Below the pieces are notes generated by a model. That model was not told the DNA's origin and made no database searches. It was given only the letters and a program-made list of their open reading frames with translations. DNA of 53,351 nucleotides from the UHGV virus genome UHGV-0304279; one strand, given 5' to 3'. This stretch comes from a virus. A program made the position numbers and the translations under genes. Positions 6,398-51,837 of the stretch are shown in pieces. Position 1 is the stretch's first letter. Each line of letters starts with the position of its first letter.

Positions 6398-6996
6398 TGG
6401 CTACTTTTGGCGCTTATTTACGCCTAGATAATGGCAATATTTTTGTAACGCCGGATTCTACCCCGATGTGCTTATATTCGCGGGTGGCATTAAATTCCAG
6501 CCAACAACAAACGATCGCTGTACCCAACGGTAAGCCTGTAATGGTATTCATCAAAAACACCGACGACACCGCTACTGGGCTTGCCTATCGCGCATCATCA
6601 TCTACGGTAGTGATCCCGCCTGGCAACGGGTATGCGTATATATTCAGCATCTTCCCGCCATCGCTGCCGAAATGGGGGATGGCTATCTGGAACGCTTCCG
6701 GGGAACTGGTACTGACCAACGAATCAAAAATATTAACCGACCTTGTTACAGTAGGCACGGCGGGATCGAGCGGGGGGATTTATATCGATCAAACATTATC
6801 AGGATCTTATGCGGTAGTGCCTCAGATATTGGGGGCCGCTGTAGGTATGGGTTCCGCAACAATATATACAGAATCATACTACAACGGCAGCAATACACGA
6901 ATTCGCGGGAAGATGGTTGGTAGCTTGCAACAGATTTACGGTTACATTAATCACGGGAACGCTATCACCGCCATTAAAACCGACGCCTATGATTAA
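6397..6996 (+). CDS. hypothetical protein, MATFG paralogue 2
   Basis: Start overlaps the stop of the previous gene (TAATG); N-terminal paralogy; glycine/serine-rich. Confidence 0.5.
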   Translation: MATFGAYLRLDNGNIFVTPDSTPMCLYSRVALNSSQQQTIAVPNGKPVMVFIKNTDDTATGLAYRASSSTVVIPPGNGYAYIFSIFPPSLPKWGMAIWNASGELVLTNESKILTDLVTVGTAGSSGGIYIDQTLSGSYAVVPQILGAAVGMGSATIYTESYYNGSNTRIRGKMVGSLQQIYGYINHGNAITAIKTDAYD

Positions 6997-7232: not shown

Positions 7233-7307
7233 TGTCTTATCCTCCATTGTTCCGTCGGTTGTAGTATCCATAAACATCGTTTTCTCAACATTGATATAAA
7301 TCAATAA

Positions 7308-7362
7308 ATACATTTTGTATAAGCCAGAAATGTAACGCAGATCACAAAATGGTAAAATTACC
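7308..7362 (+). promoter_or_regulatory. restart promoter-like region upstream of the tail fibre gene
   Basis: Contains ATACATTTTGTATA and GATCACAAAATGG motif copies plus extended -10-like TGgTAAAAT at 7350-7358. Confidence 0.4.
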
Positions 7363-9520: not shown

Positions 9521-9781
9521 TGTACCAAATAGTGACCAAATATCAAAAACCAAAATCAAAAACAACATAACATTCTGTTTTATAAATGATTATTCGTTAC
9601 GCTAACCATTCCAGACAGGACCAGTGCGCTCTGTTTAAAGGTGTTTAACTCCGTTCAATCACGTCAATAAAATCACTTAAAAATCATACAGTTGCAACCA
9701 AAACCAGGCATCACGTTTCTAATTCAGTACAATACTGTTAATATCCGTACAACAAAAACTGTGTACCAAAACGTGACCAAA
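9519..9781 (+). other. putative attP region flanked by direct repeats (candidate integrase arm-type sites)
   Basis: TGTGTACCAAATAGTGACCAAA at 9519-9540 and TGTGTACCAAAACGTGACCAAA at 9760-9781 bracket an AT-rich stretch immediately upstream of int. Confidence 0.4.
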
Positions 9782-14940: not shown

Positions 14941-14958
14941 TATGGCATTACCTCATGT

Positions 14959-16077
14959 TTACAAAATGGAATATTCAGGGTAATAAACAAAGCGCCCAAT
15001 TTCTCCATGAGCCGGGCTGTAAATAATCACCGCCGCCAGCCGCCGTGAACGCCAGCCGCCATTCGTCGAGTAAGCATCTTTGCCAGCTAACGTTCCGTGA
15101 TACTCGACAACGCCTAACGATGATTCAATCAGCCGCTGGTGATGCCAGTGTCCGCAATGAGCGTAAACCGACGACGATTTACCGAAATCCTCCCGCCAGT
15201 CAGAAACACAGGCAGCAAGTAAGGTTTCTGGTTTTTTGATGGTGTGTCCGTGGTGGTAAGCAAGGAATGTTTTTCCGTATTGTGTGTGGTGGACGATAGC
15301 AGGGGACACATCAACCGTTACGCGCGGTTCATCTTCGTAAAAAGCCGCCAGCGCCGCACGTAGCCAAATCATCCCCGACTGATCGTGATTGCCGGATAAC
15401 ACCTGGATCTCGACGCCCTTATGGTTTAACAACATTTTCCCCACCGCACGCCGGACCGACCGGATCGCCACATAAACAAGTTTTGCGTAGCGTGAATCGC
15501 AATCTAAGACGTGATTACTTGATGGCGTCACTGGTAATAGCCCGTCCGTGTGAAGCACATCACCGCCGAGAAGCAATACAGCTTTTTCAGACGTTGGTGC
15601 AGCGCCTACAGCGTAGTCAAAGAAGTCATTTAACACGCGTTCAGCGATCCCGGTGTCGTAGCTTTCTCCGCATTCAGCTTTATGCGCAAGCGCCCCGATA
15701 TGCAGATCGAATACCGGATAAAGGGCCAGGCTTTTCTGAAAATCAATTTCCGGCACTGGCACGGCTTCCGCGCGCGGCATTTCTTCCGTAAATGCGTCAC
15801 AAGCTGCCTGCATTAGCCTTTCCATTTCCTCACGGTCACGGGCCGTTTTAATCCAGCGCATGATTACATTGCCATCTTTATCAACGAGCAATGATTCACC
15901 ATTGACACCAAAACCCGGCGCGCGGCGCGTGGATATTAAACCGCGTTTCGCCAGCCGTGCGCCCAGGCGCTCGACGTTGCGTTTTGCCATGCCGTACTTC
16001 TCAGCGATCTGTTTATACGTCAGGCCGCTGTTATGTTCAGCGATTAATTCCTCATCGCTGATCTTTCTTTGTGACAT
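14959..16077 (-). CDS. HTH domain fused to calcineurin-like metallophosphoesterase (SbcD/Mre11-type motifs)
   Basis: N-terminal LTYKQIAEKYGMAKRNVERL HTH; phosphoesterase motifs DLHIG, GGDVLH, GNHD, GHWHH; ATG at 16077 with RBS GAGGA. Confidence 0.6.
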   Translation of the reverse strand: MSQRKISDEELIAEHNSGLTYKQIAEKYGMAKRNVERLGARLAKRGLISTRRAPGFGVNGESLLVDKDGNVIMRWIKTARDREEMERLMQAACDAFTEEMPRAEAVPVPEIDFQKSLALYPVFDLHIGALAHKAECGESYDTGIAERVLNDFFDYAVGAAPTSEKAVLLLGGDVLHTDGLLPVTPSSNHVLDCDSRYAKLVYVAIRSVRRAVGKMLLNHKGVEIQVLSGNHDQSGMIWLRAALAAFYEDEPRVTVDVSPAIVHHTQYGKTFLAYHHGHTIKKPETLLAACVSDWREDFGKSSSVYAHCGHWHHQRLIESSLGVVEYHGTLAGKDAYSTNGGWRSRRLAAVIIYSPAHGEIGRFVYYPEYSIL

Positions 16078-16206: not shown

Positions 16207-16440
16207 CTATTTTTTGATTTTTAAGATGACATAAACGTTAGCTTGTTGGCGTCCATGCAATTTACTCCTGCAAATGGCTATTACTCCGGCCTGTTCCAGA
16301 GATCGGATCGCTAGCTTAACACTTTGCCGACTCACTCCCAACCTGTCAGCAAGCATGATAAGTGATATTTGATAACCTCCCGTCCGGCAATGCACAGCCA
16401 GCAGATCGTAAACTTTACGCTCAGTTTTGGTTAATTTCAT
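16207..16440 (-). CDS. small winged-helix DNA-binding protein
   Basis: 77 aa with HTH-like segment LADRLGVSRQSVKLAIRSLEQAGVI. Confidence 0.45.
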   Translation of the reverse strand: MKLTKTERKVYDLLAVHCRTGGYQISLIMLADRLGVSRQSVKLAIRSLEQAGVIAICRSKLHGRQQANVYVILKIKK

Positions 16441-16567: not shown

Positions 16568-17560
16568 TCAAAGAGCGCCAGCGCGGGTGTCGCGTAGCGT
16601 TTTTGGTTTTAGTAAGAAATCTAGTGTCGCAGTGAAGCCATTGCCGAAGTAAAAATCTGAGGCCGTATTTTTGAACGCTTCGAAGTAGCTGATAAAGCCT
16701 TTGATGCTTTTATCTTTCAGGTAGTCAGAGAACGCATAAATTTTACGTTCCAGATCCCGATCAAGTTCAGCAGGTGGTAACAGGCCATCAAACGTGCTGT
16801 TAAATGCTTCCACTACGTCGGCGGCGTTTACAGTAGCTGATAGCTTGCGCCATTGTTCAGCATCAGCCAGATACCCATCGAATTTAGTTACCCGGCAAAT
16901 GTTAATAGGCTTAGGCACTCCACCACGACTACGCCATTGAGTCAAAGCCCATTCAATTACTAATGTGATCTCATCCTCCGTATATGCCTTACGTGTTTTT
17001 GTTTCTGTCAGTAGTTCGATAAATGGTTTTGCGTCACGACATTTGCATCCTGCCTTGTCGTTGTAGAAGGCTAGGCAACGCAATGCTGCCAAATTAGCCG
17101 CCTGATCTTCTTCGCTAATAGGCCCGTCTTTTTCCAATACACGGAGTGTATTGTTTTTAATGTTCTCTTTACTGGTTATATATGACTGATTAGGGTGTCT
17201 CTCTGACACTACCCCCGGTGTCACAGTGACACTACCCTGGTGTCTCTCTGACACTACCCCCGGTGTCTCTCTGACACTACCCTGTAATGATGGTAAGACG
17301 ATTACATAGAAGTTACTTGTTTGCTCTTTTCCTCCTATTAGATATCGAGGTTGCTTAATCAATAACCCTTTCTCACAAAGAGCATCAATAGCCCGCATAG
17401 CTGTGCTTTTGCCTATTTCGCATTGCTTTGCTATGTGCTGGTAAGAAGGGTAACATTCGCCGTTATCGTTAGCGTTATCAGCCAACTTTAACAGCACAAG
17501 TTTGTGCATTGGGTTGCCGACTTCAGTATGAAAGACTTCAACCATTAGCCGCATACTCAT
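16568..17560 (-). CDS. replication initiator (lambda O-like) with internal origin
   Basis: N-terminal winged-helix segment (YPSYQHIAKQCEIGKSTAMRAIDALCEKGLL); iterons embedded in the coding sequence as in lambda ori; ATG 17560 with RBS GGAGG. Confidence 0.7.
   Translation of the reverse strand: MSMRLMVEVFHTEVGNPMHKLVLLKLADNANDNGECYPSYQHIAKQCEIGKSTAMRAIDALCEKGLLIKQPRYLIGGKEQTSNFYVIVLPSLQGSVRETPGVVSERHQGSVTVTPGVVSERHPNQSYITSKENIKNNTLRVLEKDGPISEEDQAANLAALRCLAFYNDKAGCKCRDAKPFIELLTETKTRKAYTEDEITLVIEWALTQWRSRGGVPKPINICRVTKFDGYLADAEQWRKLSATVNAADVVEAFNSTFDGLLPPAELDRDLERKIYAFSDYLKDKSIKGFISYFEAFKNTASDFYFGNGFTATLDFLLKPKTLRDTRAGAL
17194..17283 (+). repeat. origin of replication iterons (four copies of about 22 bp)
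   Basis: Four tandem copies of GGTGTC(TCTCT/ACAGT)GACACTACCC(C/T), each with inverted repeat GTGTC..GACAC, inside the initiator gene. Confidence 0.75.
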
Positions 17561-17782
17561 AAACATTGGCCTCCTATGGTTAAAATGAACGCGCGGGCGG
17601 GTATCCAATTAGCATTAGATAGCGGTGAGTGACCGCTTAACAGATCCCGCCGTTGCGTGATATTTGTCTTTCGCTTCGCAGCGACACCGGATTTTTAAAG
17701 AGCATGAGGTATGCGCCTTTTTGTGCTATTCCGTTATCTTTTTTCTTGCGTCTTTGCAACTATGGCCTTACCTTGTCTGCAA

Positions 17783-17840
17783 GTTTACAGAATGGAGTTT
17801 TTAGATCAAGACTTGAAAAATACATTTTGTGACTTGTATC
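17783..17840 (+). promoter_or_regulatory. candidate promoter/operator region upstream of the repressor gene
   Basis: Motif copies GTTTACAGAATGG (17783) and TACATTTTGTGAC (17821); -35-like TTGAAA (17811-17816) and -10-like TATCAA (17835-17840). Confidence 0.35.
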
Positions 17841-17868
17841 AAACTTTTTGAGGTTATAGGGTAGCGAC

Positions 17869-18516
17869 ATGAAAACAAAATGGTATGACTTAGCAAAGCA
17901 GCTCATGCGAGCGCAAGGCATGAGCCAGGATTCACTCGCGGATCTCATGGGGATAACTAAAGGCGGCCTGTCACACTGGCTTAACGGTCGCCGCGAGCCA
18001 AATCTTGAAGATATTGCGCGGATTATGCGGGCACTTGGTCGTCGGCAGTTCACTGTTACCCATGATGGAATGGTCATTGATGATTCTGTTTCTAACACGT
18101 TACCGGGAGCGCCGCAGCGTGATTTAGGCAGTTACCCGGTTGTTGACTGGAAGGACACAGTAAACAATATGGAAGATACAAGGCGATCAACATTACCACA
18201 CGTTACGACTAGCGTTATTTGTTCAGATGATAGTTACTGGCTGGTTGCTAAAGGTGAATCAATGAACGCGCCGCAGGGGTTGAGCATCCCTGCCGGGACG
18301 ATGATACTTGTTGACCCACACGCGCCAGCTATCGATGGAAAGCTGGTTATAGCACAGCTTGAGGAAGGGCAAATACCGACGTTTAAACAGTTGATTATTG
18401 ATGGAGGTCAAAGGCTTTTACGTTCGCTTAACCCGCTGTATCCACCAATCCCCATGAATCCTGAATCGAAAATCATAGGCGTGGTGGTGGACGCGAAGAT
18501 CGTAAACCTGCCATAA
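17869..18516 (+). CDS. CI-like repressor (HTH XRE plus S24 LexA-like peptidase domain)
   Basis: N-terminal HTH (SQDSLADLMGITKGGLSHWLNGRR); C-terminal S24-like segment with GESM and a later Lys; 215 aa. Confidence 0.8.
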   Translation: MKTKWYDLAKQLMRAQGMSQDSLADLMGITKGGLSHWLNGRREPNLEDIARIMRALGRRQFTVTHDGMVIDDSVSNTLPGAPQRDLGSYPVVDWKDTVNNMEDTRRSTLPHVTTSVICSDDSYWLVAKGESMNAPQGLSIPAGTMILVDPHAPAIDGKLVIAQLEEGQIPTFKQLIIDGGQRLLRSLNPLYPPIPMNPESKIIGVVVDAKIVNLP

Positions 18517-18522
18517 AAAATT

Positions 18523-18547
18523 AGCCGCCGAATGGCGGCTTTTCTTT
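18523..18547 (+). terminator. rho-independent terminator after the repressor gene
   Basis: AGCCGCC-gaat-GGCGGCT followed by TTTCTTT. Confidence 0.7.
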
Positions 18548-18626
18548 GCCCTGAAAACACCAAAACGTAAACATAAAACGTGTTTTATTATTTAAATATC
18601 AATGACATATAAAATATTTTAAAAAA

Positions 18627-18669
18627 GTATACAAAATGGATTGACTCGGTGTATCACGGGGCGTATATT
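18627..18669 (+). promoter_or_regulatory. candidate sigma70 promoter of the rightward operon with upstream motif copy
   Basis: -35 TTGACT (18641-18646), 17 bp spacer, -10 TATATT (18664-18669); motif GTATACAAAATGG immediately upstream. Confidence 0.5.
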
Positions 18670-18804
18670 TCGAGGCAAAGGAGGTAGCAAGGCAGGGGAA
18701 AGAAGGTTACTTGCTCTTTAACAATCTGGTCAGCCGCTGGAAGTGCGGCAATTAATGAAGATGATTTTTATTAAGTATCATCATGGATATAAGGAGATCA
18801 GATT

Positions 18805-19095
18805 ATGACCGTAACAATTATGTATGGCAAATGTGATAGCAAAATAAATGCCAGGGAACGCAGAAGAATAAAAAGAGAAAACGAAAGAAAATCATCACCT
18901 GCAATCAATAAAACTGACAATGTTGATAAAGCTATTCGTTTTGCAAACGTAGAAAGATGCAAACCGAATGGCATTAAAGAGCATCGCAAAGGTGCGGCAA
19001 AATGGTATGCGGAAAACGAAAGCGGCAATTACTACCACGCAACACAACCGCGTAGTCTAGGGGAAAAACCCCTGGATAAAGTACGCTACAGATAA
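18805..19095 (+). CDS. hypothetical basic protein
   Basis: RBS AAGGAG 8 nt before ATG; first gene of the rightward operon. Confidence 0.45.
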   Translation: MTVTIMYGKCDSKINARERRRIKRENERKSSPAINKTDNVDKAIRFANVERCKPNGIKEHRKGAAKWYAENESGNYYHATQPRSLGEKPLDKVRYR

Positions 19096-19244
19096 TACAA
19101 AATGTAAACTTTCAAAGGTGACATTATGGTTGTTCAGGCGCTTCAATTCAAACTGGCTGTAGCGGAAATGCTTCACGATGCCGAAATGTGGAGCACCGCG
19201 AATAAAGCTTTATATGTAGTGTTAACAGCGAGGGAGATTAAAGG

Positions 19245-19886
19245 GTGAAAACAGAATTACATAAAAAGCTGTGGACTATTCAGCAGACGCTGAATGCGCC
19301 GAAAAGTCAGCGCAATAATTTTGGCGGTTATAATTATCGTTCGGCCGAAGATATTTTAGAGGCAGTTAAACCACTGCTTCAAAATATCACTCTGACGGTA
19401 AGTGATGAAATCGTCTTAATTGGCGAACGCTATTACGTGAAAGCTACGGCGACACTAAGTGACGGTGAGGACGCGATAGCGGTAACTGCTTACGCAAGGG
19501 AGGAAGAGAATAAGAAGGGAATGGATGCAAGCCAGCTAACAGGAGCAACATCAAGTTACGCGCGGAAATATGCTTTGAACGGTTTATTCTGCATAGACGA
19601 TGCAAAAGACGCGGATACTGATGCTTACAGTAAGCAGACAGGCCAGCAGCCTAGACAGCAGAAAAACCAGCCAAAACAACAACAGCAGAAGCAGAAAGCG
19701 CCGCCAAATCCTGATGAAGTGTTAGCGCGTTTCTGTGATGCAGCAGCGAAAGCGCCGGACGCTAACAAGTTGCGTGAAATATTCGGTAAATGCTGGAAAT
19801 TACTGCCGGAAGGATCGGAGCATCGAGTTAAAGCAAAAGATGTTTATGACATCCGGATCGCAGAGCTTAATGGGGAGATGAGCTAA
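19245..19886 (+). CDS. erf: single-strand annealing recombinase Erf (P22 Erf-like)
   Basis: Strong resemblance to P22 Erf (NAPK, Y.YRS.EDILE.VKPLL, ISDEIVLIG.RYYVKATAT, AREEENKKGMDA.Q.TGATSSYARKY.LNGLF.IDDAKDAD); GTG start with RBS GAGGGAG. Confidence 0.85.
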   Translation: MKTELHKKLWTIQQTLNAPKSQRNNFGGYNYRSAEDILEAVKPLLQNITLTVSDEIVLIGERYYVKATATLSDGEDAIAVTAYAREEENKKGMDASQLTGATSSYARKYALNGLFCIDDAKDADTDAYSKQTGQQPRQQKNQPKQQQQKQKAPPNPDEVLARFCDAAAKAPDANKLREIFGKCWKLLPEGSEHRVKAKDVYDIRIAELNGEMS

Positions 19887-20290
19887 TGAGTTTAAATTCA
19901 ATCACGCTTGGCGGGAATATCGGAAACGACATGGAAGTACGCTATACGCAAAACGGGAAGTCGATTGGTAGTTTTCCGTTAGCTGTAACGAATGGCTACG
20001 GCGATAATAAGCGGACGATGTGGATCACTTGCCTGGTATTCGGTGAGCGAGCGGAAAAATTAGCGCCGCATATCCGCAAGGGTGGAAAGATAGTGGTAAG
20101 CGGTCGCCTGGATGTTCGGCAATATGACCGGAACGATGGCACGAAGGGTACGGCGGTAGAAGTGGCGGTTAACGAATTCGAATTCATGAACGTTAACCAG
20201 CAAGGCCAGCAGCAGAAAGCGCCACCGCCGCAGCAGAATAACAACGGGAATAATCCTCCGATGGACTTTGACGACGACATCCCGTTTTGA
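19886..20290 (+). CDS. ssb: single-stranded DNA-binding protein
   Basis: OB-fold-like N-terminus, Gln/Gly-rich linker, acidic C-terminal tail DFDDDIPF. Confidence 0.9.
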   Translation: MSLNSITLGGNIGNDMEVRYTQNGKSIGSFPLAVTNGYGDNKRTMWITCLVFGERAEKLAPHIRKGGKIVVSGRLDVRQYDRNDGTKGTAVEVAVNEFEFMNVNQQGQQQKAPPPQQNNNGNNPPMDFDDDIPF

Positions 20291-22515: not shown

Positions 22516-22555
22516 ATATACATTTTGTATTGTGGTCGCATATCCGTTTTGTAAG
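22516..22555 (+). promoter_or_regulatory. intergenic motif pair
   Basis: ATATACATTTTGTAT (22516-22530) and CCGTTTTGTAAG (22544-22555). Confidence 0.35.
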
Positions 22556-25288: not shown

Positions 25289-26049
25289 GTGGGCTTAGAA
25301 ATTGGGTGGTGTGGTCGCTGTACGACGGCAGCGGATACGCCGTTAAAGATTGGGCCGACGCTGGTTATAAATGCTATTGCTTCAACTATGATGGCGCTAA
25401 TCACGGCGATTATGAAGGCGTCAAAATCATTCATCCGAACATTGAGTATGTCAACGTATGGATTGACAGCCATTTCCTGGCAATGTTCTCCCCTGAATTG
25501 TCTGTTTATCCAGATCCTGACATTATCCTGGGCTTTCCTCCGTGCGACGATCTTGCGGTGTCCGGCGCTCGCTGGTTTGCTGATAAGCGGAAAAAAGATC
25601 CTTACTTCCAGCAGAAGGCGGCATACAACGCAAAACTGGTAGAAACGCTTGCTGATATGTACCACGTCCCGTGGATGGTGGAAAATCCGGTGGGCGCACT
25701 GTCAACGTTATGGCGTAAACCGGATTTTATCTTTAATCCGTGCGCTTACGGTGGCTACCTGCCGGAAGATGATAAGCATCCAGCTTTCCCGGAATACATC
25801 GCCGACCGCGACGCCTACACGAAGAAAACTTGTATCTGGTGCGGGAATGGATTTAAGCAGCCGCTATTCCGGCCTGTACCTATGCCGGATGAATGGGAAG
25901 ACAGTAAACAGCACGCGAAGTTAGGCGGAAAGTCGAAGCGCACTAAGATGATCCGCTCACTAACGCCGCGTGGCTTCGCGCGTGCTGTATTCCTGGCTAA
26001 CGACCGGGCAATCACACGAACTACGCTTAACCGCGTTTTGCCGGACTGA
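25285..26049 (+). CDS. C5-methyltransferase-like protein (short, non-canonical PCD motif)
   Basis: Motif I-like LYDGSG, motif IV-like GFPPCDD (PCD in place of PCQ), motif VI ENV (MVENPVG). Confidence 0.5.
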   Translation: MSGLRNWVVWSLYDGSGYAVKDWADAGYKCYCFNYDGANHGDYEGVKIIHPNIEYVNVWIDSHFLAMFSPELSVYPDPDIILGFPPCDDLAVSGARWFADKRKKDPYFQQKAAYNAKLVETLADMYHVPWMVENPVGALSTLWRKPDFIFNPCAYGGYLPEDDKHPAFPEYIADRDAYTKKTCIWCGNGFKQPLFRPVPMPDEWEDSKQHAKLGGKSKRTKMIRSLTPRGFARAVFLANDRAITRTTLNRVLPD

Positions 26050-26050
26050 A

Positions 26051-26131
26051 GTTTACAAAATGGCGTCATTGTGTGATGAGGATCACATAATGGCGCTTTG
26101 CACCTTGTTTGCGTGTATCCGTTTTGTATAC
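26051..26131 (+). promoter_or_regulatory. intergenic regulatory region with motif copies and a CRP-like palindrome
   Basis: GTTTACAAAATGGC (26051-26064); TGTGA-N6-TCACA (26072-26087); CCGTTTTGTATAC (26119-26131) with -35-like TTGTTT and -10-like TATACT. Confidence 0.4.
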
Positions 26132-26208
26132 TTCAAACAAACAAAATGCTCTTTAAAAATCCGGTAACGCTGAAATGCGTAGAAATCACCTGAAAAGGAG
26201 AGAGCATT

Positions 26209-32577: not shown

Positions 32578-32596
32578 ATGTGATCTACTTCTCAAA

Positions 32597-32640
32597 GTAT
32601 ACAAAATGGCATTGTTCCTGCAGTGCCGTTTTGTTATATA
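32597..32640 (+). promoter_or_regulatory. intergenic motif pair with promoter-like hexamers
   Basis: GTATACAAAATGGC (32597-32610), -35-like TTGTTC, CCGTTTTGTTATATA (32626-32640). Confidence 0.4.
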
Positions 32641-47996: not shown

Positions 47997-48247
47997 AATT
48001 AACCCCTGTAATTATTCTGATTTGCTAAATGCTTCCTTTAACTTAGTTATACACGCATATTGTTTATTTTTTAAGTGCTTTTAACATTTCTTCGATAAGG
48101 TCCGCATAGCGTTCATATTCGTTGGGACGGTAGTTTACGTTTCTCATTTTCTTATCCTCTTTCACTTCCTCCGGGACATCCGGCCTTCCTGCATCTCTTC
48201 TATCTTTCTCTACATCATCTATACAAAACGGTATCGTTAAAATAAAG

Positions 48248-48288
48248 ACATTTTGTATAAAATAGATACATAGATCACATTTTGCATG
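48248..48288 (+). promoter_or_regulatory. restart promoter-like region upstream of the tape measure gene
   Basis: ACATTTTGTATAA with -10-like TATAAA, then GATCACATTTTGCATG; RBS GAGG before ATG 48299. Confidence 0.4.
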
Positions 48289-51754: not shown

Positions 51755-51837
51755 CATATTGTAAACTAGCTATAATTCTTGTGACGAATATCTCATTTTT
51801 CGCGTAGAAGCGCGTAAAGATATATACAAAATGTAAC
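51755..51837 (+). promoter_or_regulatory. restart promoter-like region upstream of the gpM-like gene
   Basis: ATACATATTGTAAAC (51755-51769), perfect -10 TATAAT (51771-51776), ATATACAAAATGTAAC (51822-51837). Confidence 0.45.

Follow-up and report, generated by a model that had tools for sequence, protein, structure and literature searches.

A lambda-type immunity region in mirror image, without cro, in a new member of the mEpimmI group of temperate coliphages

Overview of the locus

The virus genome UHGV-0304279, a stretch of 53,351 nucleotides (nt) that was analysed at its full length and is called the window here, carries between positions 17,561 and 18,804 a CI-like repressor gene flanked by two divergent early operons. 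The region is interpreted, with a probability of about three in four, as the immunity and early-control region of a temperate coliphage of the mEpimmI group, laid out as in phage lambda but in mirror image and with cro lost. The first-pass annotation, made from the letters of the sequence, had described a repressor transcribed rightward as a single gene with its own terminator, replication genes running leftward from about 17560, and recombination, nin and late genes running rightward from a promoter at 18641-18669. The genes and signals described below agree with that account on each of these points. Its characterization of the whole as an unusual switch layout does not hold, as the topology is that of lambda immunity mirrored, and the paper on mEp021 and its group already reports it (PMC11893012).

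Phage identity and group

Across the region, the window is ~88% identical in nucleotide sequence to mEp021 and mEp010, and its gene order agrees with the annotations of both. GenBank phage matches to the region number only seven (mEp021, mEp010, mEp013, mEp044, mEp515, mEp554 and MagusPhagus), all of them mEpimmI phages with ~88-92% identity. The region is also found in 35 of 5426 complete Escherichia coli (E. coli) genomes. The immunity region of the prophage of E. coli PAR is 99.8% identical to that of the window, and this prophage is integrated beside dgcM (ydaM), the site published for the group. In the window, the prophage right end is fused to the left end at ~9610-9621, with an overlap of ~12 base pairs (bp), just upstream of the integrase gene. 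Because of this attP-type junction, the window is read as an excised or circular phage genome, permuted and starting within the tail genes. A plasmid or phage-plasmid origin was ruled out by zero matches in the plasmid collection.

The mEpimmI group was described in 2025, with mEp021 as the type phage, as Nus-dependent non-lambdoid coliphages whose growth requires host Nus factors, whose lysogens are not inducible by ultraviolet (UV) light and whose repressors are ~96% similar; plasmid-expressed Rep021, the repressor of mEp021, blocks all six mEp phages tested (PMC11893012). With this type phage the window shares the three nut sites, the terminator after the repressor gene and the gene order. 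The window differs in three respects: it lacks gp14, a winged-helix gene of 81 amino acids (aa) located between the repressor and rep genes of mEp021; it lacks a structured insert of ~215 nt (annotated gp16) between the rightward promoter and nutR1; and it has a distinct 77-aa winged-helix open reading frame (ORF) downstream of rep. The window is thus a new member of the group, a minimal form without gp14 and without the leader insert.

The repressor gene and its terminator

In what follows, Rep denotes the repressor and rep the gene of the replication initiator.

17869-18516, plus strand: CI-like repressor Rep, 215 aa, HTH_3 and Peptidase_S24 domains
18523-18548, plus strand: intrinsic terminator after the repressor gene, bidirectional form

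Rep carries an HTH_3 domain (Pfam, E 4.9e-13) followed by a Peptidase_S24 domain (E 3.6e-19), and among solved structures it aligns best to lambda CI (3BDN, E 3e-19), across both domains. It is identical to Rep021 (gp15 of mEp021) in 211 of 215 residues (98%), including all of the N-terminal 60. In the alignment the position of the lambda Ala-Gly is occupied by Thr-Val, and the catalytic Ser (GESM) and Lys (TFKQL) are retained. Rep021 likewise has no Ala-Gly site (PMC11893012). Rep is predicted to be non-cleavable at this position.

The terminator lies past the Rep stop codon and consists of a 7-bp G+C-rich stem (18523-18540) and a T-run; it is flagged on both strands, and the same terminator is annotated TERM_1/T2 in mEp021 and mEp010. 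Ahead of the gene, the hexamer TATAGG (17855-17860), eight bases before the ATG, is kept both in the window's lineage and in a sister lineage (L016-L018) that is introduced below. This hexamer is a candidate repressor promoter, in which case the mRNA would be nearly leaderless, like that of lambda cI.

The rightward arm and the nut sites

18641-18669, plus strand: rightward early promoter TTGACT-17-TATATT, 10/12 consensus match
18712-18724, plus strand: nutR1 boxA TGCTCTTTAACAA, a perfect boxA
18733-18749, plus strand: nutR1 boxB GCCGC-UGGAAGU-GCGGC, a hairpin with a 5-bp stem, 8 nt past boxA
17692-17704, minus strand: nutL boxA TGCTCTTTAAAAA, one of three exact boxA matches
17671-17684, minus strand: nutL boxB UCGCU-GCGA-AGCGA, unchanged across 11 genomes, base-paired in the consensus fold
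26147-26180, plus strand: nutR2, boxA TGCTCTTTAAAAA and boxB ACGC-UGAAAU-GCGU, after the cytosine methyltransferase gene
18805-19095, plus strand: N-like antiterminator, homologue of Gp17, 96 aa, the first rightward ORF

Taken by itself, the consensus match of the rightward promoter is at chance level, with four such promoters found and 3.3 expected. Its hexamers are invariant in 12 genomes, and the spacer between them is variable. The leader that follows is 129 nt long and folds with a z-score of -3.0. It contains TGCTCTTTAACAA, which is identical to the boxA of the E. coli ribosomal RNA operons. The exact boxA pattern GCTCTTTAAMAA occurs without mismatch three times in the window, at 17692-17703 (minus), 18713-18724 (plus) and 26148-26159 (plus), and each copy has a short hairpin within 7-9 nt. 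The boxA elements of nutL and nutR1 form a 19-nt inverted repeat. These three boxA/hairpin sites fall where the group paper places its nut sites: nutL ahead of the repressor gene gp15, nutR1 ahead of gp17 and nutR2 past the gene for the cytosine methyltransferase (PMC11893012).

The first rightward ORF is 93% identical to mEp021 gp17 and matches the family phrog_271, 'anti-termination protein N-like' (E 1.9e-10). It contains the arginine-rich motif RERRRIKRENERK, in which R17, R19, R20, R21 and R24 are invariant in the alignment; the published conserved arginines of Gp17 are at positions 17, 19, 20 and 24 (PMC11893012). The same paper describes Gp17 of mEp021 as an N-like antiterminator acting at nutL, nutR1 and nutR2, and credits its function in terminator read-through to Valencia-Toxqui et al. 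2023 (Arch Virol 168:92).

Three relatives, RM9245, E21845 and STEC308 (L007, L010 and L012), encode an N-like protein with 68-69% identity that differs around its arginine-rich motif, and their boxB reads GCUAC-UGAAAU-GUAGC, so that both sides of the stem are altered and the hairpin is kept. By this correlation, the N variant and the altered boxB may constitute a natural specificity pair within the mEpimmI group. Since the hairpin at 18733-18749 lies 8 nt past a perfect boxA and its stem changes are paired with the N variant, it is assigned as the boxB of a nut site rather than an anonymous leader structure. The first-pass annotation had seen this hairpin, placing it near 18735-18755, a few bases to the right of where it lies, and had not recognized it as boxB. 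The N/nut system had been overlooked altogether, including the boxA of nutR1, the Gp17-like ORF at 18805-19095 and nutL in the leftward leader. The boxA/boxB anatomy would support dependence of the window phage on Nus factors.

The leader is also where a length variation is found. Nine of the 12 aligned genomes (the window among the 12) have an insert of ~215 nt between the rightward promoter and nutR1, located at 6500-6744 in mEp021 (L001), where it contains the annotated 37-aa ORF gp16; the window does not have it between 18682 and 18713. The insert folds into a closed multi-stem structure with the closing stem GGCUUAACA/UGUUAAGCC and three compensatory pairs in one helix, and it corresponds to no Rfam family. 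Rfam searches of the window and mEp021 gave nothing at the gathering score, and at E ≤ 1 only chance-level matches near the terminator.

The leftward arm

17782-17809, minus strand: predicted leftward early promoter, -35 TTGATC (17804-17809), 16-nt spacer, -10 TAAACT (17782-17787), start near 17775
17589-17658, minus strand: compound stem-loop between nutL and the first leftward gene, in the minimum-free-energy and consensus folds
16568-17566, minus strand: O-like replication initiator gene rep, N-terminal HTH_36 winged helix (Pfam E 4e-15)
17194-17284, no strand: origin iterons, a 23-bp unit repeated 3.9 times inside rep (Tandem Repeats Finder, score 143)

Like the repressor promoter, the leftward promoter is predicted. 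It matches the consensus at only 8 of 12 positions, a point against it, and the assignment therefore rests on conservation: the sister lineage keeps the promoter as TTGAAC-16-TAAACT, and homology between the two lineages ends just past it. Downstream of nutL, the compound stem-loop is invariant in 11 genomes, and so provides no covariation by which to test its fold. Its U-rich tail is UCAUUUU in the window and weaker in mEp021. The stem-loop may be a terminator or an RNA-processing site.

In the window rep is the first leftward gene. Its product matches phrog_428, phrog_8540 and further replication-initiation families, and position 17566 corresponds to the start annotated by RefSeq in the near-identical PAR prophage. 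Beyond rep follow an exonuclease-like gene and the genes of DnaB helicase and NinB.

As a separate observation, the leftward operon is strongly mosaic, with Rha/ANT, HNH endonuclease and zinc-ribbon genes that vary among relatives.

Absence of cro and a cro-bearing sister lineage

The first-pass annotation had reported no Cro-sized helix-turn-helix (HTH) gene and no cro/cII pair beside the repressor, and had suggested a search for HTH ORFs shorter than 60 aa in the flanks. The finding stood when the search was run. Seven ORFs of 26-59 aa lie in or overlap the two flanks, and none has a Pfam match at E ≤ 1. A six-frame screen of the 757 stop-to-stop ORFs of at least 35 aa in the window, in which three Cro proteins adjoining relatives of Rep and the N-terminal domain of Rep itself served as queries, found only the repressor, and the window has no HTH_3 ORF besides it. 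A cro remnant in 17570-17780 was considered and rejected, as tblastn with the Cro of the sister lineage finds nothing there and the ORFs in this interval are without domain matches. All seven GenBank mEpimmI phages have this ~300-bp region, and the plaque-forming mEp phages are also without an HTH_3 cro.

The sister lineage (L016-L018, Logan contigs of 46.6-53.7 kilobases) was found by a repressor search. Its repressor is 55% identical to Rep and has an identical recognition-helix segment, MGITKGGLSHWLNGRREPN. The backbone matches that of the window, with DnaB, a 370-aa exonuclease-like gene and rep on the left and the repressor, an N-like gene, a 39-aa kil, ERF and SSB on the right. The sister lineage has a cro: a 75-aa HTH_3 gene (E 6.5e-12), divergent from the repressor gene across 124 bp. 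Its nutL, consisting of CGCTCTTTAACAA and UUGCUGAAAAGCAA, comes right after the cro stop codon, and this succession of cro and nut is the pR-cro-nutR arrangement of lambda. Alignment of the leftward arms of the window and L016 shows homology from the repressor start codon through TTGATC/TTGAAC-16-TAAACT to approximately the expected start site. Past the promoter, L016 continues with a Shine-Dalgarno sequence and cro, whereas the window continues with ~70 nt of unrelated leader and then nutL. The sister lineage otherwise resembles the window in its leftward promoter, in its motif copies (see below) and in its short rightward leader, and differs in its lambda-like GAAAA boxB loops and in an N-like protein of 115 aa.

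Four contexts of more distant relatives were also compared. A divergent HTH_3 gene stands beside the repressor gene in two of the four (L019-L021 and L024); the other two, L022 and L023, are degraded or at a contig end and thus uninformative. Because both the sister lineage and distant repressor relatives carry a divergent HTH_3 gene, the mEpimmI arrangement is a derived cro-less form common to all members seen. Presumably, the window phage is without any Cro-like function. The missing cro is not mentioned in the main text and available supplements of the group paper (PMC11893012). The sister lineage possibly represents a new immunity group within the phage family. Within the GenBank phage collection, the sister cro has only distant matches, at most 46% identical and in unrelated phages.

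Small winged-helix genes of the leftward operon

16207-16440, minus strand: 77-aa winged-helix ORF, MarR_2-like (Pfam MarR_2, E 6e-7), downstream of rep

The loss of Cro function has to be weighed against the presence, in most relatives, of a small HTH gene in the cro position, for which a Cro-like role is possible. The window lacks, relative to mEp021, a segment of 268 bp (L001 5121-5388) that carries gp14. In mEp021, this gene uses the ribosome-binding site that serves rep in the window, and in the 12 relatives compared from outside the window's sub-lineage the first leftward gene is an HTH gene of 80-85 aa that uses this site as well. The position of the gp14-type gene relative to the repressor is exactly that of cro. 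A small winged-helix gene is still present in the leftward operon of the window. A non-canonical Cro analogue could accordingly be gp14 in most relatives and, in the window, either the 77-aa ORF or the N-terminal winged helix of the initiator.

Such an analogue is nonetheless improbable. The gp14-like genes fall into two types that are 32% identical and differ in their putative recognition helices. The two are similar to the N-terminal winged-helix domain of replication initiators (phrog_4617, E 1.9e-9 and 1.2e-18, positions 3-68 and 5-90), and neither matches Cro or HTH_3. Moreover, each type pairs with one type of initiator (HTH_36 or Lin1244/Lin1753), while the operator region is constant in all. 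The gp14-like gene is missing from the cro position both in the window and in three independent prophages, those of PAR, KKa019 and Ecol_244. The gp14-like genes are therefore better seen as part of the replication module, and a Cro-like role appears to be the less likely reading.

The phrogs matches of the 77-aa ORF are to the N-terminal parts of replication initiators, and the ORF is accessory, being intact in PAR, truncated in KKa019 (where a 49-aa fragment is annotated) and gone together with its region in Ecol_244. The similarity between gp14 and the 77-aa ORF is undetectable, which speaks against a shared role as Cro analogue and also rules out that the two are one relocated gene.

It might also be argued that the window is a defective deletion derivative that lost the gene at the cro position and part of the leader, so that its layout would be without functional significance. 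The 268 bp with gp14 and ~215 nt of rightward leader that mEp021 has are indeed missing from it. The joints, however, fall cleanly on module boundaries, at the ribosome-binding site and the start codon, the same form is seen in three prophages, from China, Japan and Argentina, and the window is excised or circular, with an attP junction and a full gene set. The plaque-forming mEp phages are equally without an HTH_3 cro, and the sister lineage also has the short leader. These observations make a deletion derivative very improbable indeed, and the cro-less arrangement is taken below as that of a functional phage.

Operator candidates

17781-17795, plus strand: operator candidate AAGTTTACAGAATGG, overlapping the leftward-promoter -10, almost without variation across 12 genomes
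17821-17835, minus strand: operator candidate AAGTCACAAAATGTA, weaker and inverted, at or just upstream of the possible repressor promoter, conserved in both lineages
18625-18639, plus strand: operator candidate AAGTATACAAAATGG, an exact match, ending one base before the -35 of the rightward promoter

The 15-mer AAGTWTACAAAATGG occurs with at most one mismatch in six copies, where 0.02 would be expected. Motif copies had been proposed as operators at 17783, 17821 and 18627; the first and last are real and lie at 17781 and 18625, and the one at 17821 is weaker and inverted. Further copies, which that proposal did not include, lie elsewhere, at 14955-14969, 26049-26063, 26119-26133 (minus) and 32595-32609. 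The 15-mer is the only sequence common to both regions that the repressor must control. Its copy at 18625-18639 falls inside a 36-bp block invariant in 12 genomes, and the motif is invariant across homoimmune genomes, unlike the spacer of the rightward promoter. The sister lineage, with the same recognition helix, keeps the 15-mer at the same places, and two of its copies have a TAC-N6-GTA dyad. These properties point to the 15-mer as the probable operator of Rep.

Several observations pull the other way. The copies outside the immunity region are one. Another is that one orientation of the 15-mer contains a -10-like TAAACT/TATACT, the orientation found at the leftward promoter (17781) and at 26119 upstream of nutR2. 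The 15-mer may thus belong to promoters or be recognized by a different factor. Its copy at the rightward promoter has its centre near -44, a location that suits activation as well as repression, and in the mEpimmI group the motif shows weak dyad symmetry. The 32595 copy is followed by promoter-like hexamers and by TCGAGG, as at the rightward promoter, and related ATACAAAATGTAT palindromes lie near intergenic junctions. On these grounds the 15-mer could be a shared promoter-region element or another factor's site, the true operators of Rep lying elsewhere in the invariant intergenic DNA. This is unlikely, though it carries more weight than the other alternatives considered here, and the additional sites could equally be further promoters controlled by the repressor. 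The extra copies may mark such promoters, or the motif may have another role. The pair at 26049 and 26119 flanks a CRP-like TGTGA-N6-TCACA (26073-26088) a short way ahead of nutR2, which hints at a second promoter under regulation.

Three related proposals were rejected. A second operator, TGTATCA in the -35/-10 spacer of the rightward promoter, was ruled out because homoimmune genomes differ in this spacer. The same variable spacer would hold the -35 of a leftward oop-like promoter built on the 18625-18639 motif, which was ruled out on that account. Stoperators in the style of phage L5, asymmetric repressor sites that are spread over the whole genome and point along transcription, are not supported, as the window copies in the rightward region are eight on the plus and six on the minus strand and the one leftward-operon copy is anti-oriented; in the sister lineage, the 15-mer copies are co-oriented with transcription.

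The near-palindromic ATACAAAATGTAT elements themselves are located at 7306-7352, 22516-22554, 48217-48258, 19091-19105 and 51820-51834. They often form inverted pairs and occupy junctions between genes, in the tail region and in other parts of the window, and some are close to isolated genes transcribed leftward.

Neighbouring genes

19126-19248, plus strand: Kil-like gene, 40 aa (Pfam Lambda_Kil, E 1.7e-4, under the family cutoff)
19245-19886, plus strand: erf, after the kil-like gene
19886-20290, plus strand: ssb, after erf

Further rightward lie methylases, NinG, RusA, a Q-like antiterminator, lysis genes and structural genes. At the far end of the leftward arm, the integrase gene is on the plus strand and adjoins the attP junction. 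Ten further small early proteins were scanned for DNA-binding domains, and the sole match is a 76-aa HTH_23 protein encoded beside the integrase, which is probably an excisionase.

Comparison with lambda and with antirepressor-controlled phages

In lambda, one strand carries cI (rex), pL, nutL, N, kil and the recombination genes, and the divergent pR leads to cro, nutR and the replication genes. The window shows the order repressor, terminator, promoter, nutR1, N-like gene, kil, erf and ssb, which is that of the lambda cI-pL-nutL-N arm, and its divergent leftward promoter leads to nutL and the replication genes, as does the pR arm. The repressor is CI-like, with HTH and S24 domains, and Nus-factor dependence is reported for the mEpimmI group. 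The differences from lambda are nevertheless substantial. The window is without cro and cII; its repressor has no Ala-Gly and UV induction is not reported for mEpimmI; there are three nut sites instead of two; and rex genes are missing, the repressor gene being closed by a terminator of its own. On the N arm lie the Q-like, lysis and structural genes and on the replication arm int/xis, and the operator candidates form no obvious triple dyad.

In control of the Gifsy and P22 Ant type, non-cleavable prophage repressors are countered by antirepressors. Rep resembles such repressors in keeping the S24 fold without the cleavage site; Rha/ANT-domain genes are found in the leftward operon of relatives, and a KilAC antirepressor fragment in the PAR prophage. 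The leftward operon of the window, in contrast, has no Rha/ANT gene, and no antirepressor gene or LexA box has so far been tied to Rep.

Proposed circuit and implications

In the proposed circuit, Rep would be made from its own weak promoter, with transcription ending at its own terminator, and would silence both early promoters through the copies of AAGTWTACAAAATGG at 17781, on the leftward -10, and at 18625, adjoining the rightward -35. Without repression, transcription from the rightward promoter would pass through the 129-nt leader with nutR1 into the gene of the N-like, arginine-rich antiterminator. This protein and the host Nus factors would then modify RNA polymerase at nutR1, nutL and nutR2. 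Rightward, read-through of terminators would reach the recombination, methylase, NinG/RusA, Q-like, lysis and structural genes; leftward, transcription would proceed past the stem-loop at 17589-17658 into the replication operon and finally to xis/int. With ~70 nt of leader in place of cro, no second repressor would compete at the operators. If the repressor is non-cleavable, lysis or lysogeny would be decided by the balance between accumulating repressor and N-dependent read-through.

The region itself is already explained, in that the group is published and its repressor and N-like antiterminator have been studied experimentally. What is added here is a natural comparison between two lineages with a shared backbone, leftward promoter and recognition helix, one having cro and nut and the other nut alone. 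It is tentatively proposed, at somewhat below even odds, that the whole mEpimmI group operates a one-repressor, N/Nus-dependent circuit with no Cro-like function, that cro was replaced by a short leader in an ancestor, and that the small winged-helix genes are replication accessories. If so, lytic commitment would be set by N-like antitermination gating the replication operon against a non-cleavable repressor, and not by a bistable switch of two repressors. Human-gut E. coli commonly carry the cro-less lineage, among whose phages are some that form plaques and lysogenize. This makes the lineage a convenient system for determining what Cro adds to a CI-type switch, and allows the question of whether antitermination alone can give lytic commitment to be asked.

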